This document shows, one piece after another, positions 319 through 34,841 of a stretch of 61,007 bases of DNA; the stretch's first letter is position 1; every line of letters starts with the position of its first letter. The stretch spans positions 1 through 61,007 of the forward strand of contig CAZXBW010000001.1 of the NCBI GenBank assembly GCA_964639105.1, given 5' to 3'. This DNA is from an uncultured Nitrososphaerota archaeon. Its GTDB lineage: Archaea; Thermoproteota; EX4484-205; JAAOZO01. The translations under genes and the position numbers were made by a program. The notes under the pieces are model-generated. The model had not been told where the DNA came from and did not search any database. It was given only the letters and a program-made list of their open reading frames with translations.

Positions 319-871
319 GGAAATCGCGATACCCGGAGATACAATAGGCACGATAGAAGAGGGCGATCCGGGGAAGGGAACGTACGAAGACCAAGGAAAA
401 ATCAACTCTATGTTCACTGGACGGATGCGATTCGACCGGAAGAATAAGATCTTCCAAGTAGATCCATTGACTCAGAGCCCATCATTTCCCCGGGAAGGGG
501 AGGAAGTCATTGCTAGAGTAATGGCCGTTCAGAACTCGCTCGCAACCTTGGAGATAGTGAAGGCAAGTGACAGAGTACTGGGTAGAACATTCACCGGTCT
601 GCTCCATCACTCACGAGCCGGTAGGATCGTGGGATCTAGACTCAAGAAGTATCTCAGGCCCGGAGACATCGTGCGGGTCAAGGTCGTCTACGACAAGAAC
701 CTGATTCACGTGAGCATGGTAGGGCAGAGATTTGGTGCCGTGCAGGCCTATTGCTCGAGGTGTGGAGGCAAGCTCGAAAGGAAAGGAGCCAGGAACTTAC
801 TGTATTGCGTAGATTGCGGCTGGAGGGACACGAGATTGACGTCGTCTGACTATGGAACCCTCAAGTGGTGA
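299..871 (+). CDS. csl4: Exosome complex RNA-binding subunit Csl4
   Basis: N-terminal IPGDTIG..EEGDPGKGTY, a central S1-like segment and a C-terminal zinc ribbon (CSRCGG...YCVDCGW). GTG start overlaps the end of rpl10e. Confidence 0.8.
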   Translation: MQETKNREIAIPGDTIGTIEEGDPGKGTYEDQGKINSMFTGRMRFDRKNKIFQVDPLTQSPSFPREGEEVIARVMAVQNSLATLEIVKASDRVLGRTFTGLLHHSRAGRIVGSRLKKYLRPGDIVRVKVVYDKNLIHVSMVGQRFGAVQAYCSRCGGKLERKGARNLLYCVDCGWRDTRLTSSDYGTLKW

Positions 872-934
872 GCGAAGACGATAACGAAGATCAACAAGAT
901 AGGAGAAGACGAGGTCGAGATAGTATTCGACGAC

Positions 935-1150
935 GTGTCGACAACTTTCGTTGATCCCCTCGTCGATCGCATATTGCAGGAGGACACCACTGCCGCTGCG
1001 TCTTATGTTGTGGAGCACTACATCAAAGGGCCACTCAGGATGATGGTCAGGAGTTCGAAGGGCGACCCAGAAGAACTCGTTAGGAAAGCGGTGGATCAAC
1101 TCACTTTAGACATCGACAGGGTCAAACTCGACCTTGAGAAGAGCAAGTAA
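935..1150 (+). CDS. rpoL: RNA polymerase subunit Rpo11 (RpoL); true start uncertain
   Basis: ASYVVEHYIKGPLRMMVRSSKGDPEELVRKAVDQL resembles RpoL. The first canonical start in frame is GTG 935, but RpoL-like sequence (KINKIGEDEVEIVFDD) continues upstream to base 872 in the same frame as csl4. Confidence 0.65.
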   Translation: MSTTFVDPLVDRILQEDTTAAASYVVEHYIKGPLRMMVRSSKGDPEELVRKAVDQLTLDIDRVKLDLEKSK

Positions 1151-1562
1151 GAAGTCGACTGGATCCATTGAACTCTTCATCCCGGGAAGGATATTGCAGA
1201 ACGTTTCGTCATACAGTGGTCTGAGGGAAATAGCAGAAAGCAGAGATCTCGCGAAGTTGGGAGATGCATTGCTTGGTCTATTGAATGTAGTCGGAATAGA
1301 GGCTGGCTACCTGAAGGACGAATCAAGGGTTACAAACGAGATGCTCAGGAGAGTTACGACACGCACTGGGCTCAGGACTGAACTACACAAGAGGATGAAC
1401 AAACGAGCCTTGGGGGATGCGATTGAGGCACTGACTGCATATTGGTTCGTCCGAGGTGATTTGTCTTGGGCTAGCATGATCGAGGAGATGAGGAACGGCG
1501 CAGAACTGGAAGATGCTCTAGTGAGATCTATTCTGCTCATCAGGGGAGGTGCTGAATCTTGA
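1134..1562 (+). CDS. RNase III-like domain protein (hypothetical)
   Basis: Two RNase III-type signatures: LAKLGDALLGLL and ALGDAIEALTAYW. Overlaps the rpoL end and the DUF99 start, so it is probably co-transcribed. Start codon (TTG 1134) is uncertain. Confidence 0.4.
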   Translation: MRRASKKSTGSIELFIPGRILQNVSSYSGLREIAESRDLAKLGDALLGLLNVVGIEAGYLKDESRVTNEMLRRVTTRTGLRTELHKRMNKRALGDAIEALTAYWFVRGDLSWASMIEEMRNGAELEDALVRSILLIRGGAES

Positions 1563-2125
1563 AGAGACAAGTCAGAATCCTAGGAGTGGACGACTCACCC
1601 TTTGAATTCAGGAAAAGTAAGACAACCTGGCTGGTCGGAGCGGTCTATCGAGGCAACCTCTGGATGGAGGGTATCATGGTTGATGTGATAGATGTGGACG
1701 GAATGAATGCGACCGATGTGATCAGAAGAATGATCGTCAACCCCAAATTCTCGTCACAGATCAGGGTCGTATTCCTAGACGGGATAACCTTCGGCGGCTT
1801 CAATCTCGTAGATATGGATGAGTTGTACCGAAAGACAGGCGTTCCAGTAGTCAGCATTGTGGAGAGAATGCCGAACATCGATCGCATCAAAAGGAGCATG
1901 CGATCACTCCCGGACTTCGAGAGGAGACTTGAGATAGTGTCCAGAGCCGACCAGCCCAACAAAGTCAAGCTCAAGGGGACAGACAAATCGCTATTCATTC
2001 AGAGCAGAGGCATCGATCGAGATGAGTTGACGCGCGTACTTGAATCCTCGAGGAAGGCGGGGACAGTTCCAGAGGCCCTCAGAGCAGCTCGGATGATAGC
2101 ATCCGCGTTGCTAGGAAATCGGTAA
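1559..2125 (+). CDS. DUF99/UPF0215 family protein (endonuclease V-like fold)
   Basis: N-terminal ILGVDDSPF motif and a length typical of the archaeal UPF0215 family. 4-nt overlap with the upstream gene. Confidence 0.7.
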   Translation: MKRQVRILGVDDSPFEFRKSKTTWLVGAVYRGNLWMEGIMVDVIDVDGMNATDVIRRMIVNPKFSSQIRVVFLDGITFGGFNLVDMDELYRKTGVPVVSIVERMPNIDRIKRSMRSLPDFERRLEIVSRADQPNKVKLKGTDKSLFIQSRGIDRDELTRVLESSRKAGTVPEALRAARMIASALLGNR

Positions 2126-2171
2126 CTAAACTTTATTAGCGCCCACCTTGCCCACACTCGATTCCTGAACG

Positions 2172-2507
2172 ATGGGGGTCATCAAATTCTGCCCGAAGTG
2201 CGGCACTAAGATGATTCAGGATCGTTCTGCTAAGCGACCCCAGTTCATATGCCCGAAATGCAAGTACAAGGAAGCAGCAAAAGATGTGAAGATCCCCGTG
2301 GTCAGGGGCAGGAGAAAAGCGGCGGTTCGAATTGTGGGAGAGGATAGTGAGAGCTTGAAGCCCATGCCGACCAGCGATGCCGTGTGCCCCGCCTGTGGAA
2401 ATACCAAGGCATACTGGTGGCTCATACAGACTCGGGGAGCGGATGAGTCACCCACCCAGTTCTTCCGTTGCACGAAGTGTGGCCACACGTGGAGAGTATA
2501 CAGCTAG
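2172..2507 (+). CDS. tfs: Transcription factor S (TFS / RpoM-like)
   Basis: N-terminal Zn ribbon FCPKCGT...CPKC. C-terminal TFIIS-type ribbon CPACGN..AYWWLIQTRGADESPTQFFRCTKCGHTWR with the acidic hairpin. Confidence 0.85.
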   Translation: MGVIKFCPKCGTKMIQDRSAKRPQFICPKCKYKEAAKDVKIPVVRGRRKAAVRIVGEDSESLKPMPTSDAVCPACGNTKAYWWLIQTRGADESPTQFFRCTKCGHTWRVYS

Positions 2508-2517
2508 GTCGGAAATG

Positions 2518-3282
2518 TCAGCTTTCCATCAGTGAAGCTAGATAGTAGTTCAGAATCACTCCTTCACGTATCTCCGCCACGATTTTCAGTGGAAGATCCT
2601 TGCCGAAGTAGAAGGTAACCTCCGCTTTAGGTTGAAATGATGCGATCAACAAGGAGAGCCTTCCGATATCGTACCTGGATGAAACTCCGTCTTCCAGAGT
2701 CGAGTCTCCGAGAGATCCCTTCTCGCGCATTAGCGTAACCTCTAGGGATCTTTTCTCCTCTGATCGGGCGATGAGTTTCAGATCTTTACCGACAACCGAG
2801 AGCTCTATTCTGTCAGTTACCCCCTTGCCAAGATCTACTATCTGCCTCAGGTATTTGATGTCGGCTTTGAAATTGGAGGTGTAGTTTATCTTAGGCAAGG
2901 AGAGTTCCTTTCCCTCCGGTTTGAACACCGCGAGATCTGCTTTTCTCATAACCTCGGCCTCAGATGCCATTACCAGAGTGCCGCGCCTGAAGTCGAGGCT
3001 AACCGCGTCGTTGCCGACTAGTCTGAGGAATTTCATCATCTCTGCGGCCTTTAGGACGTATGTGTCCGACTTGTCGACCTTGAATTCGGCTGCAGCTGCA
3101 GGTGGAATGGTTATGTCTACCATGGAAACCTCAGATAGATCAAGCGCCCTAAGCGAAATGCCATCTGGGGTTACCTTGACGGGGATTTCGTCTGTGACGG
3201 CCGAAGCCGCCCTTATCGAGTCATAGAGGAGAGAAGCATCCTTCATGGTCACCTTTGCGTAAGATTCGGTCTCTTCTGACAT
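2518..3282 (-). CDS. pcn: DNA polymerase sliding clamp PCNA
   Basis: About 250 aa with a PCNA-like pattern throughout (LYDSIRAASAVTDEIPVKVTPDGISLRALD ... FGKDLPLKIVAEI). ATG at 3282 preferred over the upstream GTG at 3306. Confidence 0.85.
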   Translation of the reverse strand: MSEETESYAKVTMKDASLLYDSIRAASAVTDEIPVKVTPDGISLRALDLSEVSMVDITIPPAAAAEFKVDKSDTYVLKAAEMMKFLRLVGNDAVSLDFRRGTLVMASEAEVMRKADLAVFKPEGKELSLPKINYTSNFKADIKYLRQIVDLGKGVTDRIELSVVGKDLKLIARSEEKRSLEVTLMREKGSLGDSTLEDGVSSRYDIGRLSLLIASFQPKAEVTFYFGKDLPLKIVAEIREGVILNYYLASLMES

Positions 3283-4353: not shown

Positions 4354-5546
4354 GGGAGCAAGACGTCCGCTTCTTACGTTCGGTCTTCGCAGAGTATTAC
4401 TCGAAACACTCTGAGGCAGTGTATGTTCCTCCTCCAGTGAACAGCAGGGAGGTAGGGTTCGCTGTCTGGCCAGACAGGGTAATGGTTAGGCATATGAGCT
4501 TTAGGTCCCTGACTGATATGAGAGAGTACGTCCTCAATGACCCGCCCGCGGACGCATATCACTCCTGTGCTGTGTATGAATCCCCGGAAAAGCCTATGGA
4601 ATACAAGAACGCACTATGGGCCGATCTTGCCTTCGATGTTGATGCAAAGGACGTGCAGCCAGATTGCATCGAAGAGATGACTTACTCGATATGCCCAAAG
4701 TGTGGAGCACACAGAAAAGGAAACAAGAAAAAGTGTCCGAATTGCTCGGAAGAGAGCCATATTGTCGAGTTCATGAGTTCTAAGTGCATTGCGTCCACTG
4801 CCCACCAGACGAGGAGACTAAACTCAGCTCTGATAGACGAGTTGGGAATAGAGGAAGGAGACATAGCCGTATACTTCAGCGGACACATGGGATTCCATGT
4901 GTACGTGACCTCAAAGGCAATCGGTGAGCTTGGGCCGGACGCCAGAAGAGAGATTACAAGCTACTTGTCCCTTGAAGGAGCGGCGGATAGCTATTCGCCT
5001 GGTAAGTCGGCCAACTTGAGAACCATAAGGGCAGGAGGGGTCGGCCGGAGACTCCAAGAGGAGATTCTAGACATTGTGAATAACGCCGGCCAACACAATG
5101 ACATCTTGGAGGACGAGGGTGTACTTCTCTTGAAGGAGAACAAGCAGAGGATCCTGTCAGCATTTAACAAGGGGAGAACTGAAGACATCGTTGTGTTACT
5201 GGGCGTTAAGAAGGCAAGGAAGTTACTAAGACGAGCTTGGCAGAGAGCGGCCATTGTTGTGGACCCCTCTGTAACGATGGACATCCATAGGATATTTAGA
5301 ATGCCTGGAACTCTTAATAGCAAAAGTGGGCTGCCAAAGCAGCGAGTGCCATTGGACAAGATCGACGCGGACGTCCTATCGCTCGTGCCCGAGTATGGAC
5401 GAGCGGAGGTCCAGATTTCTGCATCCTTCGTCCCCGAAATGGAAATTGGCGACTACAAGGTTGGGCCCTTATCGAACGAGACCGTGAGTGTTCCGAGATA
5501 CATAGCGGCATACCTCATGCTGAAGGGGGTGGCCTCTGTTGACTGA
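4350..5546 (+). CDS. priS: DNA primase small (catalytic) subunit PriS
   Basis: DLAFDVDAKD catalytic motif, SGHMGFHVYV, RIFRMPGTLNSKSG, and a Zn knuckle CPKCG...CPNC. Confidence 0.9.
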   Translation: MREQDVRFLRSVFAEYYSKHSEAVYVPPPVNSREVGFAVWPDRVMVRHMSFRSLTDMREYVLNDPPADAYHSCAVYESPEKPMEYKNALWADLAFDVDAKDVQPDCIEEMTYSICPKCGAHRKGNKKKCPNCSEESHIVEFMSSKCIASTAHQTRRLNSALIDELGIEEGDIAVYFSGHMGFHVYVTSKAIGELGPDARREITSYLSLEGAADSYSPGKSANLRTIRAGGVGRRLQEEILDIVNNAGQHNDILEDEGVLLLKENKQRILSAFNKGRTEDIVVLLGVKKARKLLRRAWQRAAIVVDPSVTMDIHRIFRMPGTLNSKSGLPKQRVPLDKIDADVLSLVPEYGRAEVQISASFVPEMEIGDYKVGPLSNETVSVPRYIAAYLMLKGVASVD

Positions 5547-7559: not shown

Positions 7560-8372
7560 ATGTTTTCAGGCGGGATAGATCCAAATGTGTACTATTTCAC
7601 GCGCCCAAGGATATGGATCAGGAAGAACTGGGTTGTGTCTAGACCCACTTTGATATCTGGGTACCCCGGTCTGGGAAGGATCGGGGAAGTTGTCCTACGG
7701 TTCTTGGTCAGAGAGTTGTCCGCGAAGAAGATCGGTATCGTGACATCACCGTATTTCAGTTCTCAAGCGATTGTCGGAAAGGACGGAATCGCACGGCTAA
7801 CAGCAGTGCGTCTATATCTGAAGCCCAGGCCAGAGGGAGACTTGGTTCTAGCCCTCGGGGAACAACATCAGGAGATGATGGGAGGGGAGTATGAAACGTG
7901 CCGGGTGTTGTTATCCTTCTTCAAGAAGGTCGGCGGAAGCAAAGTCATCACAGTAGGTGGTCACATGGAGCCACCGCGTGAGAACCTGAGAACCTATGTC
8001 TTCACGTCGGACGCCCGAATAGCAGCTCAGCTCAAGACCGACGGATTCACGATGGCTCCGGCCGGAACACCCATAGTAGGTGCGGCAGGAATAGCACTCG
8101 GCCTAAGCAGGTTGTTGGGTTTGGAGGGAGTTGGCGTACTTGGATTGACGAATAGCGAGGGTCCTGATCTAGAAGCGGCCAAACATGTCCTCATGAACGT
8201 TGATACATTGCTGAAATTAGGACTGAATTACTCCAAGTTCGAGGCCGAGTCCGACAGATGGAGGAGACTGCAAGAACAGTACCAGAAGGGGCTACATAGG
8301 CTTGAAGAAGATCAACGCTTCTCTCCTCTCCTGCAAGGTAGAGGAACAGAGGGACCTGACTACCTAGGGTAG
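7560..8372 (+). CDS. PAC2-family proteasome assembly chaperone-like protein (COG1938)
   Basis: LISGYPGLGRIGEVV near the N-terminus, and a position next to nop10 as in the conserved archaeal operon. Confidence 0.6.
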   Translation: MFSGGIDPNVYYFTRPRIWIRKNWVVSRPTLISGYPGLGRIGEVVLRFLVRELSAKKIGIVTSPYFSSQAIVGKDGIARLTAVRLYLKPRPEGDLVLALGEQHQEMMGGEYETCRVLLSFFKKVGGSKVITVGGHMEPPRENLRTYVFTSDARIAAQLKTDGFTMAPAGTPIVGAAGIALGLSRLLGLEGVGVLGLTNSEGPDLEAAKHVLMNVDTLLKLGLNYSKFEAESDRWRRLQEQYQKGLHRLEEDQRFSPLLQGRGTEGPDYLG

Positions 8373-22990: not shown

Positions 22991-23080
22991 GGGCCCGTGG
23001 CCTAGTCAGGATCAAGGCGGCAGAGCAAAGCGCTGATCCTCCTAAGTTGCAAATCCTGGGTTCAAATCCCAGCGGGCCCG
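22991..23080 (+). tRNA. tRNA-Arg (anticodon CCT) with a 14-nt insertion in the 5' strand of the anticodon stem
   Basis: Acceptor GGGCCCG/CGGGCCC. D-arm GCCT-AGTCAGGATCA-AGGC. T-arm CTGGG-TTCAAAT-CCCAG. Removing 23024-23037 gives stem GCAGC/GTTGC and loop CTCCTAA. Confidence 0.75.
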
Positions 23081-23088
23081 CTCGGCAA

Positions 23089-31816: not shown

Positions 31817-31917
31817 GGCCTGGTAGCTCAGCCTGTCGGGTGGGCCAAGGAGAGCGTTCGACAAACAGGACGAAGCTGAAGACCGAATTGTCGCAGGTCC
31901 AAATCCTGCCCAGGCCA
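31817..31917 (+). tRNA. tRNA-Phe (anticodon GAA) with two 14-nt insertions (D-loop and anticodon stem); CCA follows in the genome
   Basis: Acceptor GGCCTGG/CCAGGCC. D-stem GCTC/GAGC encloses 22 nt instead of 8. Removing 31861-31874 gives stem TTCGG/CCGAA and loop CTGAAGA. T-arm GCAGG-TCCAAAT-CCTGC. Confidence 0.75.
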
Positions 31918-31989
31918 CCACACTCATTCGATGTCAATCGCTATGCATGACCGAGCGGTGTGGGCATCTACAATCCAAGAAAGAGTGAA

Positions 31990-32024: not shown

Positions 32025-32134
32025 GCGGCAGTAATCTAGCCTGGTCTAGGATCCGACCCTGCCAAACTTGAGGGTGCGGTGCGGTCGTCACGCGGGTTCA
32101 AACCCGTTTCGCGGTGAAAATCCCGCCTGCCGCA
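32025..32134 (+). tRNA. tRNA-Gly (anticodon GCC) with a 17-nt insertion in or next to the anticodon loop and an 18-nt insertion in the T-loop
   Basis: Acceptor GCGGCAG/CTGCCGC. D-arm ATCT-AGCCTGGTCTA-GGAT. Anticodon stem CGACC/GGTCG encloses 24 nt beginning CTGCCA(A). T-stem GCGGG/CCCGC encloses 25 nt (TTCAAA...AAAT). Confidence 0.7.
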
Positions 32135-32143
32135 CTCCCAACC

Positions 32144-32800
32144 CTATTCCTTGTGAGACGGATTGATTATGACAAACGCGAAGATTGATTCCGGTCCCTC
32201 TTCCACGTTGACGACCTTTACTTCTCTGACTTGAGACATTGTATATCCCCTCACTTCGCCCAGCTCCTTCGCGAAGGCGAGTCCGCGTACTCCCTCTTCC
32301 GGAGCGAGCGGGCCAAAAGTATCCAGCAGCGTTTTTGATCCCTGACTGAGAATGAGAAAAGCCACCCTGATATCGTATTCTACGACTAACTCTTTCCCAG
32401 CGGAGATTTTGCTCTTGAATGAGGTTGAGAGTTGTTCGAGAACCATTCTCTTCACGGTCTCATCCGCCGCAGCCGCCTCAGCTCTGAACCCCGAAAGGGG
32501 ACCATATGATTCCAAGGGTCCAATGAGATCCTTATCCTGAGCGGTAAGCAATTGAACTGTGATCTCCTTTATTGACCCTCGTGCCCTTGTCATTAGACTC
32601 CTGACTAGCCCCGGAATCCCTTTGGGGCCTTCCAACAACTTGTAGACGGTGTAGGCGTATACCTCGTCATTGTTGTGGCCGTACAGTGAGAGATACCCCT
32701 TGGCTATTCCCTGACTCCAGAGATCCTTTACGACCCGACCGGCTATGTTCGGTGCCTCTTCGATGTCTCCATCTTCTTGCCATATGTCTCGTGTTATCAT
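32144..32800 (-). CDS. Hypothetical protein, third gene of the TGT-like operon
   Basis: 218-aa ORF whose ATG overlaps the stop of the upstream LAGLIDADG gene (ATGA). No motif recognised. Confidence 0.5.
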   Translation of the reverse strand: MITRDIWQEDGDIEEAPNIAGRVVKDLWSQGIAKGYLSLYGHNNDEVYAYTVYKLLEGPKGIPGLVRSLMTRARGSIKEITVQLLTAQDKDLIGPLESYGPLSGFRAEAAAADETVKRMVLEQLSTSFKSKISAGKELVVEYDIRVAFLILSQGSKTLLDTFGPLAPEEGVRGLAFAKELGEVRGYTMSQVREVKVVNVEEGPESIFAFVIINPSHKE

Positions 32801-33714
32801 CTTCCTGTTTTCCTCCCCCCCATCTTGTGTTTCCAGAATTCCTCAATGGCTTCCTGATGCGACTCCTTAAAACTCCCTATCTCCTCGATGAATTTTATCA
32901 TGTCTTCATTCCTGTTTAGGGCCAATGTATATTCCGCCTTGTCTGGAAGCGGCTCTCCTTCAAGAGGGTATATCTCGCTGGTAATATCGAAATGATCTTT
33001 CACCAGATCCGCGAGGCCTTGTAGACCCTCCCGATTGCTTGAGAAGAACCTTACGCTCAGTCGCTTGGTCTTGGGGTAGTAACCTATTGACCCGTCTCCG
33101 CTCATGAACCCCTTCAAGTAAGCTCGGGCCGCCTCTTTGTCCATGTATTGCGCGGGCACTTCCCAGTACTTGCTTCCGTGCTTGTTGATGTATTTCATGA
33201 TATCAGCGGCCGCTTCTTTGCTTACCTTACCCATCTCGAAGAAGTGTTTCTTGTCCTTATGTCGATATCTACTAGGGCTCATACCGTACACAACAGACAG
33301 ACAATCGCTAAAAAGGTCCAACAGTTCATCTGATTTGCTGCCGAACCTCAGTACATATGGTTCTCCTTCGGGATTGCGTTGGATATTCCCGTCACTCTCT
33401 ATGAGTGACATCAAGATGGCTTTCTCTCGACAAAGCAATCTCCTAGTGTCATTTTCTGTCACTTCTAGCAACATCCCATTTTCCGATTTCAGCAAGACTC
33501 GATTATCTTCGATTGAGGCAACACCGGGATACGTTCCTAGACCCTCGCCCTCCTTTCTGAGTTCGACTCCTTCCTCTTTTTGCCAGAGTTCGTAGGAGCC
33601 GTATATCATGAAGGGCTCCTGTCCGTATCCGCATACATCCTTTTCTTGGGTCCACTCAGGTGTCCCTTGGTCGAAGCGTTGAGCGACTTGGTCCTCGTGC
33701 TTTCCTCCTCCCAT
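32797..33714 (-). CDS. Free-standing double-motif LAGLIDADG endonuclease-like protein
   Basis: Two LAGLIDADG motifs, LMSLIESDG (residues 101-109) and LKGFMSGDG (200-208), about 99 aa apart. Both keep the Asp before the final Gly. ATGA overlaps at both gene ends. Confidence 0.7.
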   Translation of the reverse strand: MGGGKHEDQVAQRFDQGTPEWTQEKDVCGYGQEPFMIYGSYELWQKEEGVELRKEGEGLGTYPGVASIEDNRVLLKSENGMLLEVTENDTRRLLCREKAILMSLIESDGNIQRNPEGEPYVLRFGSKSDELLDLFSDCLSVVYGMSPSRYRHKDKKHFFEMGKVSKEAAADIMKYINKHGSKYWEVPAQYMDKEAARAYLKGFMSGDGSIGYYPKTKRLSVRFFSSNREGLQGLADLVKDHFDITSEIYPLEGEPLPDKAEYTLALNRNEDMIKFIEEIGSFKESHQEAIEEFWKHKMGGRKTGR

Positions 33715-34841
33715 CAGATGGTCTTCTCCTCGAACCGGGCCTTTTGCTGCAACAAGTTGTGAAGCGACAACCTACGAACGTCATGCAAGAGGTCATACGG
33801 TCTAGCTCCGTTGCAGGCAGGGCAGTTGCAGGGAACATACTCTGTGTCCGGGTAAAGGACGGATCTCGTCTTCTCGCCGAAGAAGATGAATCTCCGCTTC
33901 GCGTGGATGTACCATGACAGAGTTGCATACTTCGCTCTCTTCAGCCGTCTGATCCGGTGCGAGAGACCGTAGACCAGCAACTCCGGATCTGCTCCTGCCT
34001 TCCTGAGGGCGTACGTGACGGTCGTAATGTATCCGTCCAACAGGTCGAGCTTGGCGAGTTCCCTGACAGGGAGGGCGAACGAATCATACCCGAGTTGGAG
34101 CTGCCTCTCGATGCACCACTGGGTCTGTTTGGAAATCGCGCCCTTGACGACACCTAAGACAGGAATCCCAAGATCACGGAACTCGGCCGCATACCTCACA
34201 AGTCGGAGGGTCTGCGACCAAGACAGGTAGAGAGGGTCATCGACATATGTGTGATTGTCCGAGACCATGACAACATCCGGCCTGAGGTCACTCACTAGTT
34301 TGACATAGTCTGCAGGCTTGAGCTTGTCGACGATCTCGTCGGGCATTATGGTCGAGAGCGCGATCTTTCCATCGTATCCGAGGTAGTCGTGCAGGCCGAC
34401 CCTAGAGATTTGGTCCAAGAGCCCTTTGGCCGTGAGGATCTCTCCCAGCCTGACGAATATCGCCGGGAAGGAGAAGGAATCCCAGAACCAAGATCTGCGG
34501 TCGGTGACGCTGATAATTGGGGTGAACCTCGGGAGGTCCGCCTTCTTGACCTGTCGTGCGTTGACTTCGGGAACCTGCTCCCGCATGGGCCTCTGCTTAC
34601 CTCCGATCGGGCAGTAGTCCCTAAGCCTGCAGAACTCGTTTGGATAGGTGATCCCGCTAATGGACGTGCCTCGTATGCAGCGGTCAATCAGGCAAATCCT
34701 CGTGATGCAGCCAGGGCACAGAACCCGGTAGTATGGGCAAGCTTGACAGCTCACACCACACTTGCCCTTCCTCTCCGATTCCAACGAAGATAACGTTGCT
34801 CTTGAGATAAAAAGGGCACACTTCTCCGGCTGTTCACACAC
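33714..34841 (-). CDS. TGT/DpdA-superfamily (transglycosylase-like) protein with N-terminal Cys-rich module
   Basis: LPRFTPIISV, VMVSDNHTY, LGYDSFA and the C-terminal Zn motif CNCPACNG...LSLHNLL resemble tRNA-guanine transglycosylases. There are 11 Cys in the first 77 residues, including CGVSCQAC. GTG start. Confidence 0.55.
   Translation of the reverse strand: MCEQPEKCALFISRATLSSLESERKGKCGVSCQACPYYRVLCPGCITRICLIDRCIRGTSISGITYPNEFCRLRDYCPIGGKQRPMREQVPEVNARQVKKADLPRFTPIISVTDRRSWFWDSFSFPAIFVRLGEILTAKGLLDQISRVGLHDYLGYDGKIALSTIMPDEIVDKLKPADYVKLVSDLRPDVVMVSDNHTYVDDPLYLSWSQTLRLVRYAAEFRDLGIPVLGVVKGAISKQTQWCIERQLQLGYDSFALPVRELAKLDLLDGYITTVTYALRKAGADPELLVYGLSHRIRRLKRAKYATLSWYIHAKRRFIFFGEKTRSVLYPDTEYVPCNCPACNGARPYDLLHDVRRLSLHNLLQQKARFEEKTI

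Follow-up and report, generated by a model that had tools for sequence, protein, structure and literature searches.

Why should a protein with the fold of a tRNA-guanine transglycosylase (TGT) be encoded in one unit with a homing-type endonuclease and an orphan protein, right beside a tRNA gene? The question is raised by three minus-strand genes, referred to here as genes 1, 2 and 3 or together as the trio, in a 61,007-nt stretch of DNA from an uncultured Nitrososphaerota archaeon (contig CAZXBW010000001.1; "the window" below means this whole stretch). An original prediction, made from the letters of the DNA alone, had seen in the pairing of genes 1 and 2 an echo of the bacterial Dpd islands, which modify DNA with 7-deazaguanines and restrict it. 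The answer that we favour, at a probability of about 0.55, is a different one, namely that the trio is a homing-type, self-propagating mobile cassette that targets the 3' ends of tRNA genes. It draws on the linkage of the three genes, the number of their copies and the selection on them, on their association with tRNA genes and the repeats at their flanks, and on independent insertions and decay, all of which are observed in archaeal genomes.

A scan of one genome per species yielded 50 loci with members of the gene 1 family, together with two canonical archaeal TGTs (ArcTGTs), and all 50 loci lie in metagenome-assembled genomes (MAGs) of Brockarchaeota or of Thermoproteota type. Gene 2 adjoins gene 1 in nearly all of the loci for which sequence is available, and an iterated hidden Markov model of gene 3 finds an open reading frame (ORF) of ~216-233 aa directly after gene 2 in 35 of 39 loci, in genomic contexts that vary; the three-gene linkage is therefore kept in other archaeal genomes, in cassettes of about 2.7-2.9 kb. 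Five loci (L016, L023, L024, L025 and L039) are rearranged, with gene 3 placed divergently upstream of gene 1 and a tRNA-Gly(TCC) directly after gene 2. The trio is furthermore multi-copy: one MAG can hold as many as 10 loci, and in several cases two copies share a contig. No second copy or remnant is found elsewhere within the window. Copies of gene 1 share 41-81 % identity within a genome and orthologues share 80-95 % between genomes. Each of the three genes is under purifying selection, with ratios of nonsynonymous to synonymous divergence (dN/dS) of 0.09-0.38 in six orthologue pairs, and synonymous divergence (dS) differs by up to 14-fold between gene 1 and genes 2 and 3 of one operon (L011/L012, L031/L032 and L029/L037), a contrast that argues for the exchange of modules. 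Several copies are frameshifted or truncated. A complete trio with its flanking tRNA repeat also makes up a 2.9-kb contig binned as Fervidobacterium sp. (L021), which is almost certainly a mis-binned archaeal contig. In the searchable literature neither the trio nor the gene 1 family nor gene 3 was found described, and literature searches on TGT paralogues in Thermoproteota and on endonucleases in Brockarchaeota gave nothing relevant.

The association with tRNA genes is well beyond what their density would give. ARAGORN places a tRNA no more than 120 nt from a trio end in 20 of 35 loci, against an expected 0.24 loci, a value derived from the tRNA density elsewhere in the same loci, which are not all independent of one another. 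At least nine tRNA species are found at trio ends, and in most of these loci it is the 3' end of the tRNA that faces the trio, either convergently (1-10 nt past the gene 3 stop codon in the closest cases) or co-directionally just upstream of gene 1. Around ten trio copies are bracketed by near-perfect direct repeats of 27-92 nt that consist of the 3' part of the tRNA, such that the tRNA is complete at one end and represented by a 3' fragment at the other (L017, L019, L021, L022, L029, L031, L037, L041 and L045); in L009 and L050 upstream tRNA 3' fragments can also be made out by eye. How far the fragment reaches on its inner side varies (23-62 nt), and in L022, L037, L031 and L041 the repeat extends through the spacer into gene 3, of which it covers the final 5-26 nt. 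No older trio remnants lie upstream of the flanking repeats, which makes a simple origin by tandem copying plus random deletion unlikely.

In L019 the functional tRNA-Arg and the displaced 3' fragment (4883-4922 and 7716-7755) share the acceptor strand, their T-stems differing by compensatory changes. It is the T-arm of the orthologous tRNA of L017 that the displaced fragment matches, which suggests that the 3' part of the tRNA was brought in or swapped by the element. In L028 the trio lies within a perfect 101-nt direct repeat (4897-4997 and 7700-7800) at the 3' end of a protein-coding gene, a non-tRNA site; this reflects either an insertion of very recent date that came with a long duplication, or an artefact of assembly.

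That these units move, and that they decay, can be seen by comparing orthologous sites. The site F46-tRNA-Glu(ctc)-[trio]-F47, with flank proteins that are 76-81 % identical between genomes, holds a clade-B trio in L042, whereas the trio of L043 and L046 is of clade A, points the other way and is partly degraded; different trio lineages have entered the same tRNA-Glu site independently. Members of one clade (~80 % gene 1 identity) occupy tRNA-Ala(GGC), tRNA-Ala(CGC), tRNA-Thr, tRNA-Glu(CTC) and tRNA-Glu(TTC). The window site can itself be followed through relatives anchored on the alanyl-tRNA synthetase (AlaRS). In L060 and L061 (AlaRS 87 % identical to that of the window) the trio is intact but mosaic, and between L061 and the window the identities are 87 % for gene 1, 59 % for gene 2 and 43 % for gene 3 against 91 % for the CBS protein and 87 % for AlaRS; among relatives of the window locus gene 1 identity is 67-87 %, gene 3 identity 43 % and that of flanking genes 87-91 %. 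This contrast in divergence indicates allelic or paralogous replacement of modules. Further away only a gene 3 remnant is left (L064, AlaRS 82 %), genes 2 and 3 are seen at a contig edge (L066, AlaRS 74 %), or some 11 N-terminal gene 3 codons persist in a 37-codon ORF beside tRNA-Gly (L067 and L069, AlaRS 75 %). Loss and decay at this site in relatives imply that the window copy is old and dispensable, and it appears to be vertically inherited. The flanks at other loci, as judged from a grouping of those of 50 loci into gene families, are syntenic chromosomal genes, and no recombinase is found between the repeats, nor in the three neighbourhoods that were annotated with Pfam. The earlier suggestion of an accessory island beside a tRNA gene is supported.

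The gene that would drive such movement is gene 2, which is, as had been proposed, a single-chain LAGLIDADG nuclease with intact catalytic residues. It matches Pfam LAGLIDADG_3 (E = 9e-16) and a PHROG endonuclease (E = 4e-10), and its family profile aligns with I-DmoI (5ak9) at E = 3e-9 over the whole nuclease core, with the acidic residues of both motifs aligned to those of I-DmoI. The residue at D108 is an aspartate in most family members and a glutamate in a few, D207-G208 is invariant, and 99 residues separate D108-G109 from D207-G208. Ahead of the nuclease core there is a conserved N-terminal domain of ~95 aa (MGGGS..Q..RRF..GE...) without a match. Gene 2 is a free-standing ORF between genes 1 and 3 and lies in neither an intron nor an intein.

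Gene 1 is a more puzzling companion. Matches of its single sequence are weak (Pfam TGT, E = 0.014; PADLOC TGT, E = 2.6e-6; PDB 1iq8, E = 0.7), and its homologues form ~40 uncharacterised clusters, all from Thermoproteota or Brockarchaeota MAGs and metagenomes. The family profile aligns with ArcTGT (1iq8) at E = 4e-8 over residues 105-358, hhalign against the canonical ArcTGT of Methanohalarchaeum (L057) gives a probability of 97.9 % (E = 5e-13), and the AlphaFold2 (AF2) model, with a mean predicted local distance difference test score (pLDDT) of 80, finds 1iq8 as its best Foldseek match (E = 3e-13), followed by bacterial TGTs at ~1e-9. Taken together the profile, hhalign and Foldseek matches establish at the level of the fold that gene 1 belongs to the TGT superfamily, as predicted, and a near-identical GLHD(F/Y)LGFDG motif points to its descent from ArcTGT. 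The L057 protein, which carries TDSGAYQ, GCDLFDSAAY and CSCPVC, served as the catalytic reference.

Gene 1 is, at the same time, no ordinary orthologue of ArcTGT or ArcS, since it lacks two catalytic aspartates and the C-terminal tRNA-binding domains. At the position of the TDSG motif the window protein reads LSTIMPDE and the family consensus LSTVMPDE, without a catalytic Asp; the general acid/base Asp (D95 in ArcTGT and in DpdA) faces an invariant S163 in the profile alignment or a 7-residue deletion in that of hhalign. At the position of the nucleophile motif GxDxFD the window protein has KYATLSW and the family consensus YSNLSW, and the nucleophile Asp (ArcTGT D249, DpdA D256) faces S, N, A or T; no conserved acidic residue occurs in this segment across 24 aligned members, and there is none whatever in the window protein. 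The motifs that the original prediction had equated with these two do not correspond to them: VMVSDNHTY matches not TDSGGFQ but the FLD(I/E)xT motif with the base-binding Asp, and LGYDSFA matches not GxDxFD but the beta-6 region GFDxYxIGG. Its assignment of LPRFTPIISV to the beta-1 start of the barrel probably holds up. What gene 1 has kept is the base-binding Asp, as an invariant D195 (PDNYTY or SDNHTY) equivalent to ArcTGT D130 and Z. mobilis D156, the stacking aromatic residue Y291, and the zinc site, whose residues C338, C340, C343 and H361 are kept by at least 90 % of the family and align with ArcTGT in the manner of a TGT-type structural zinc site, again as proposed; the base-contacting Gln has become an invariant Lys (K233). 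The chain stops right after the zinc subdomain, at 356-375 aa compared with 483 aa (L057) and 538 aa (L058) for canonical ArcTGTs, which bears out the reported lack of a PUA or other C-terminal ArcTGT domain.

All three active-site aspartates are invariant in TGT and DpdA, and the substitutions D95A and D256A abolish guanine exchange (PMC10164549). With both the acid/base and the nucleophile Asp missing, gene 1 would not be a base exchanger of the DpdA/TGT type, and to judge from its residues a role as a base-exchange enzyme is unlikely. Most likely it is a non-catalytic reader of a guanine-type base, either in tRNA or in tRNA-gene DNA. The Cys-rich module at its N-terminus is real, nine of its Cys being conserved in the alignment; it precedes beta-1 of the TGT barrel by ~75 residues and is modelled by AF2 with a pLDDT below 55. 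A radical-SAM reading of this module was rejected, as the spacing is CX3CX2C here but CX4CX2C in another clade and there is no radical-SAM barrel; neither Pfam nor NCBIfam gave a radical-SAM family match for gene 1.

Gene 3 is an orphan, as first described, without a family match in Pfam, NCBIfam, PADLOC or PHROGs. It evolves fast, such that only 7 close matches were found before the search was iterated; W7 and W28 are invariant in both alignments and G185 and Y186 are invariant or nearly so. Its AF2 model (pLDDT 91) comprises a beta-alpha-beta-beta-alpha-beta domain, a helical linker and a beta-rich domain, for which Foldseek found no significant match in PDB or BFVD. Its best matches, to HORMA proteins (Mad2, REV7) and HUH Rep proteins, had a probability of at most 0.25 and a template modelling (TM) score of at most 0.22, and both folds were set aside, as the family has neither an HUH motif nor a conserved catalytic pattern. 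The protein probably assists the nuclease, as a structural or a regulatory partner.

In the window the trio is tightly packed, and its start/stop overlaps agree with the proposal that it forms one expression unit (Table 1). An ATGA overlap had been read at both junctions: that between genes 2 and 3 is indeed ATGA, with an overlap of 4 nt, while the junction of genes 1 and 2 is TGATG, with an overlap of 1 nt. The ATG with which homologues of gene 1 start is replaced by ACG at 34796-34794, hence this copy must start elsewhere, at either of the codons listed in the table. The TTTTTAT sequence, which would lie 23-29 nt upstream of the TTG start, is a possible promoter element of gene 1; in paralogous copies a box that reads CTTAAAT or TTTAAAT is conserved ~35 nt ahead of gene 1. 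A scan for bacterial promoters and terminators was set aside because the host is an archaeon. The unit ends 9 nt from a tRNA-Gly, as had been noted, measured from the gene 3 stop codon to the 3' end of the convergent tRNA-Gly(GCC) gene, which the cassette presumably targets or is anchored at. Neither ARAGORN at default settings nor Rfam at its gathering threshold reports a tRNA near the unit, and this is because the tRNA-Gly has two introns, of 17 nt after position 38 and of 18 nt inside the T-loop; once both segments are removed ARAGORN calls tRNA-Gly gcc.

Table 1. Features of the trio and its surroundings in the window.
Feature	Position	Strand	Basis and remarks
Gene 1	33714-34841	minus	ORF, 375 aa from GTG 34841 or 356 aa from TTG 34784
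Cys-rich N-terminal module of gene 1, residues ~28-86	34584-34760	minus	alignment; nine conserved Cys, begins CGxxCxxC
Zinc motif of gene 1, C338-x-C340-x2-C343...H361	33759-33830	minus	aligns with CSCPVC...H of ArcTGT
Gene 2	32797-33714	minus	ORF, 305 aa
LAGLIDADG motif 1, KAILMSLIESDG	33388-33423	minus	catalytic residue D108 = I-DmoI D21
LAGLIDADG motif 2, AYLKGFMSGDG	33091-33123	minus	catalytic residue D207 = I-DmoI E117
Gene 3	32144-32800	minus	ORF, 218 aa
TTTTTAT, possible archaeal TATA box	34807-34813	minus	read from sequence
tRNA-Gly(GCC), two introns	32025-32134	plus	Rfam tRNA 17.9 bits, below threshold; ARAGORN after intron removal
tRNA-like gene with intron, ends CCA	31818-31921 (approx.)	plus	Rfam 14.7 bits; outside cassette

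The second tRNA-like gene, which gives only a partial ARAGORN call after one segment is deleted, is probably a tRNA-Phe(GAA). The introns of both tRNAs beside the trio are non-canonical. Elsewhere in the window ARAGORN calls a 91-nt "tRNA-Phe (aaa)" on the plus strand (22991-23081), whose odd anticodon and length suggest that here, too, a tRNA with an intron was parsed wrongly.

How might such a cassette spread? We infer that the initiating break is made by gene 2 and that the cassette is copied in the course of repair. The nuclease would make a double-strand cut in, or just after, the 3' part of the tRNA gene (T-arm and acceptor) in an allele that is unoccupied or differently occupied, and repair would then take as its template either the occupied allele or an excised copy of the element, circular or in tandem, whose own tRNA 3' fragment would sit between gene 3 and the promoter of gene 1. 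This would leave an intact tRNA together with the cassette and a 3' fragment of the tRNA that has been displaced, and copying of slightly more than one unit length would produce repeats that include the last few nucleotides of gene 3; over-unit copying from a circular or tandem copy would account both for these gene 3-end repeats and for the two classes of orientation. The part of gene 1, as a reader, could be in targeting, or in protecting the resident tRNA gene.

A number of observations weigh against a homing cassette. About 40 % of the loci have no detectable tRNA beside the trio, although ARAGORN misses intron-rich tRNAs, the window's own included, and the true adjacent fraction may be higher; in the five rearranged loci it is the 5' end of tRNA-Gly(TCC) that faces the cassette. 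The window copy, as well as several others, has no flanking direct repeat, and no truly empty site was observed; at the window locus an AlaRS-anchored scan of metagenomes gave decayed remnants only. The window copy appears to be vertically inherited down to an AlaRS identity of about 75 %, and its mobility may be lost. No circular junction was observed, and no relatives of gene 1 were found among IMG/VR viral contigs, so there is no known transfer vehicle. General recombination, or an integrase acting in trans, could drive insertion in place of gene 2. Furthermore homing elements normally need a nuclease gene only, and the purifying selection on two more genes suggests that the trio has an additional function. 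Among the more distant kin of gene 1 there are proteins encoded in defence-like contexts.

The latter contexts lead to a serious rival explanation, if one that we consider unlikely, in which the trio is a sensor-effector conflict module, for defence or addiction: the pocket of gene 1 would sense a guanine-type or modified base or nucleotide, such as 7-deazaguanine from invader DNA or from degraded tRNA, and release the nuclease of gene 2 to cut DNA, with gene 3 as inhibitor or adaptor and the tRNA flank as the route by which a mini-island was acquired; such a role would be compatible with mobility. It is favoured by the wider superfamily of TGT-like proteins without the aspartates (286 clusters at 50 % identity), which mixes and matches with effector-type domains as conflict systems typically do: some members are fused to a calcineurin-like metallophosphoesterase (L008, 2840-4594, minus strand; P0088, P0083 and P0091), and a ~295-aa branch occurs in modules of CARF, TGT-like, ThsB-TIR and 8xMP proteins. 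The PADLOC "TGT" model, moreover, matches P0088 (E = 3e-11) as well as gene 1, genes 2 and 3 diverge much faster than the flanking housekeeping genes between the window and L061, and PUA-Calcineurin-CE-HAD, a system that senses a modified nucleotide (bioRxiv 10.64898/2026.01.15.699771), offers an analogy. Yet the trio lies among housekeeping genes and not in defence islands, PADLOC has no match for gene 2 or gene 3 of the window, a sequence-specific homing-type nuclease would be an unusual effector of abortive infection, many copies are decayed, and up to 10 paralogues per genome at tRNAs with fragment repeats are typical of a proliferating element. The parallel to Dpd, in which gene 1 would put 7-deazaguanine into DNA and gene 2 would restrict unmodified DNA, can appeal to the TGT fold, the zinc site, the base-binding Asp, the PADLOC TGT match and the presence of a DNA endonuclease as partner. 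It fails on the acid/base and nucleophile aspartates, which are missing in every member of the family (LSTVMPDE, and YSNLSW or YATLSW for LFDSAAY), and on gene content, as the three Pfam-annotated neighbourhoods hold no DpdB or DpdC, no preQ0 genes and no restriction helicase or nuclease genes; LAGLIDADG enzymes, besides, read long specific sites and not modification status, and we regard such a pairing as highly improbable.

It is possible, if quite unlikely, that tyrosine integrases encoded elsewhere move minimal integrative elements in trans and that the trio is merely carried along in these, with the repeats as attL and attR and a function of its own that has nothing to do with mobility. 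An integrase inserting into a tRNA gene classically leaves just such a pair, a full tRNA and a directly oriented 3' fragment, and in L009 and L022 a conserved sequence adjoins the tRNA fragment, which suggests an attP-like region borne by the element. The variable boundary of the fragment and the gene 3 end that the repeat sometimes includes are nevertheless a misfit with a fixed core site; the repeats bracket the three genes only, no integrase family is present in the three annotated neighbourhoods, the occurrence of one clade at five tRNA genes would require several cognate integrases, and every cassette has a site-specific nuclease of its own with intact catalytic residues. Mobilisation by integrases is less parsimonious than a homing cassette. 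Very improbable, too, is a housekeeping role, as a complex that modifies or processes the neighbouring tRNA, for example its unusual introns. The descent of gene 1 from ArcTGT, the tRNA and aminoacyl-tRNA synthetase genes that adjoin the trio in several loci and the non-canonical introns of the neighbouring tRNAs would fit it, but the trio is dispensable, since close relatives have lost it or keep it in decayed form at this very site and pseudogenised copies occur elsewhere, its copy number varies, and the same clade is found at different tRNAs. Gene 1 lacks the catalytic aspartates, and gene 2 retains the catalytic residues of a DNA nuclease, which maturase-type LAGLIDADG proteins are often without.

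Some members of the wider TGT-like superfamily are of interest in themselves. The L008 fusion protein is a gene 1 paralogue with 24 % identity that includes the Cys-rich module, and it is encoded back-to-back with a trio; beside it lies a gene for a highly acidic protein of 755 aa (392-2659, minus strand) with a C-terminus that appears PD-(D/E)xK-like by eye. The ~295-aa branch (L111 2953-3837; L113 5001-5882; L114 917-1810; L115 903-1796) is without the Cys-rich and zinc modules, the CARF protein of its module is HFX_2341_N/Csa3-like, and methyltransferase or conjugation genes are nearby. The CARF/TGT-like/TIR/8xMP module looks like an undescribed defence-type system.

To return to the homing cassette, its parts can be set beside systems that are already known. 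Gene 1 shares with ArcTGT (1iq8) the (beta/alpha)8 barrel, the zinc subdomain, the GLHD(F/Y)LGFDG motif and the base-binding Asp, but is without the acid/base Asp, the nucleophile Asp, the base-contacting Gln and the C1/C2/PUA domains of ArcTGT. ArcTGT is a single-copy housekeeping gene, whereas gene 1 belongs to a multi-copy cassette with a nuclease and has an added 9-Cys module. In Methanohalarchaeum (L057, 4824-9544) genes for the ArcTGT of 483 aa, a radical-SAM protein of 343 aa and an ArcS-like protein of 602 aa form a canonical cluster, the last two identified by eye. QTRT2, the non-catalytic subunit of eukaryotic TGT, likewise keeps the fold and the zinc site without the catalytic Asp and acts as a non-enzymatic partner; however, it partners a catalytic TGT and gene 1 partners a LAGLIDADG nuclease and an orphan, and the sequences give no sign of a specific relationship.

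Gene 2 and I-DmoI have in common an archaeal single-chain double-LAGLIDADG core with equivalents of D21 and E117. I-DmoI is an enzyme of a 23S rRNA intron in Desulfurococcus mobilis and targets rDNA, whereas gene 2 is free-standing, has an additional N-terminal domain of ~95 aa and two co-encoded proteins, and its presumed target is the 3' end of tRNA genes. Integrase-type elements in tRNA genes leave an intact tRNA at one end and a duplicated 3' fragment at the other. The trio resembles them in the intact tRNA, the displaced fragment and the tRNA 3' part borne by the element, and differs in having no tyrosine or serine recombinase, only three genes, and variable repeat boundaries that can include its own 3' end. 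A precedent for a free-standing homing nuclease among tRNA genes is SegB of phage T4, a GIY-YIG homing endonuclease of a tRNA gene cluster that spreads with flanking DNA and has a 27-bp site containing a conserved T-psi-C stem-loop motif (PMC2330249). SegB is of another nuclease family and a single phage gene, whereas the trio is cellular and includes a TGT-like and a third partner; tRNA 3'-fragment repeats such as those of the trio are not described in the abstract of that paper. With the Dpd system the trio shares a TGT-superfamily protein encoded beside DNA-targeting proteins (PMC10164549). Gene 1 lacks the catalytic Asp residues of DpdA, the ATPase DpdB, DpdC and preQ0 genes are not found with the trio in the three neighbourhoods, and it is the trio that is multi-copy and anchored at tRNAs.

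The trio would thus seem to belong with free-standing homing-endonuclease elements and tRNA-targeted insertions, and there is a real chance that it is a new class if gene 1 is a targeting subunit. A bolder and tentative proposal, one that we would not yet expect to prove right, is that an inactivated paralogue of ArcTGT has become a recognition subunit that steers or restrains a LAGLIDADG nuclease at tRNA 3' ends, giving rise to a new mobile class whose cassettes would hop among different tRNA genes by break-induced copying from a circular or tandem intermediate; alternatively, this architecture could be a new sensor-nuclease immune module with a TGT-fold base reader at its core.

If a homing cassette is the right explanation, then Brockarchaeota and related archaea would harbour an unrecognised family of cellular mobile elements that occupies up to ten or more sites per genome, mostly at tRNA genes, and a free-standing LAGLIDADG nuclease could persist for a long time within a three-gene unit. 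The TGT scaffold would have been recruited without its chemistry, probably as a reader of a base or of nucleic acid, and the phosphoesterase fusions and the CARF and TIR contexts suggest that conflict systems have repeatedly used the TGT pocket as a sensor module. For annotation the lesson is that a TGT-like protein does not imply DNA modification of the DpdA type. A nuclease that acts at the 3' ends of tRNA genes together with accessory proteins would also be of interest for genome engineering, and bears on why tRNA loci are hot spots of insertion.

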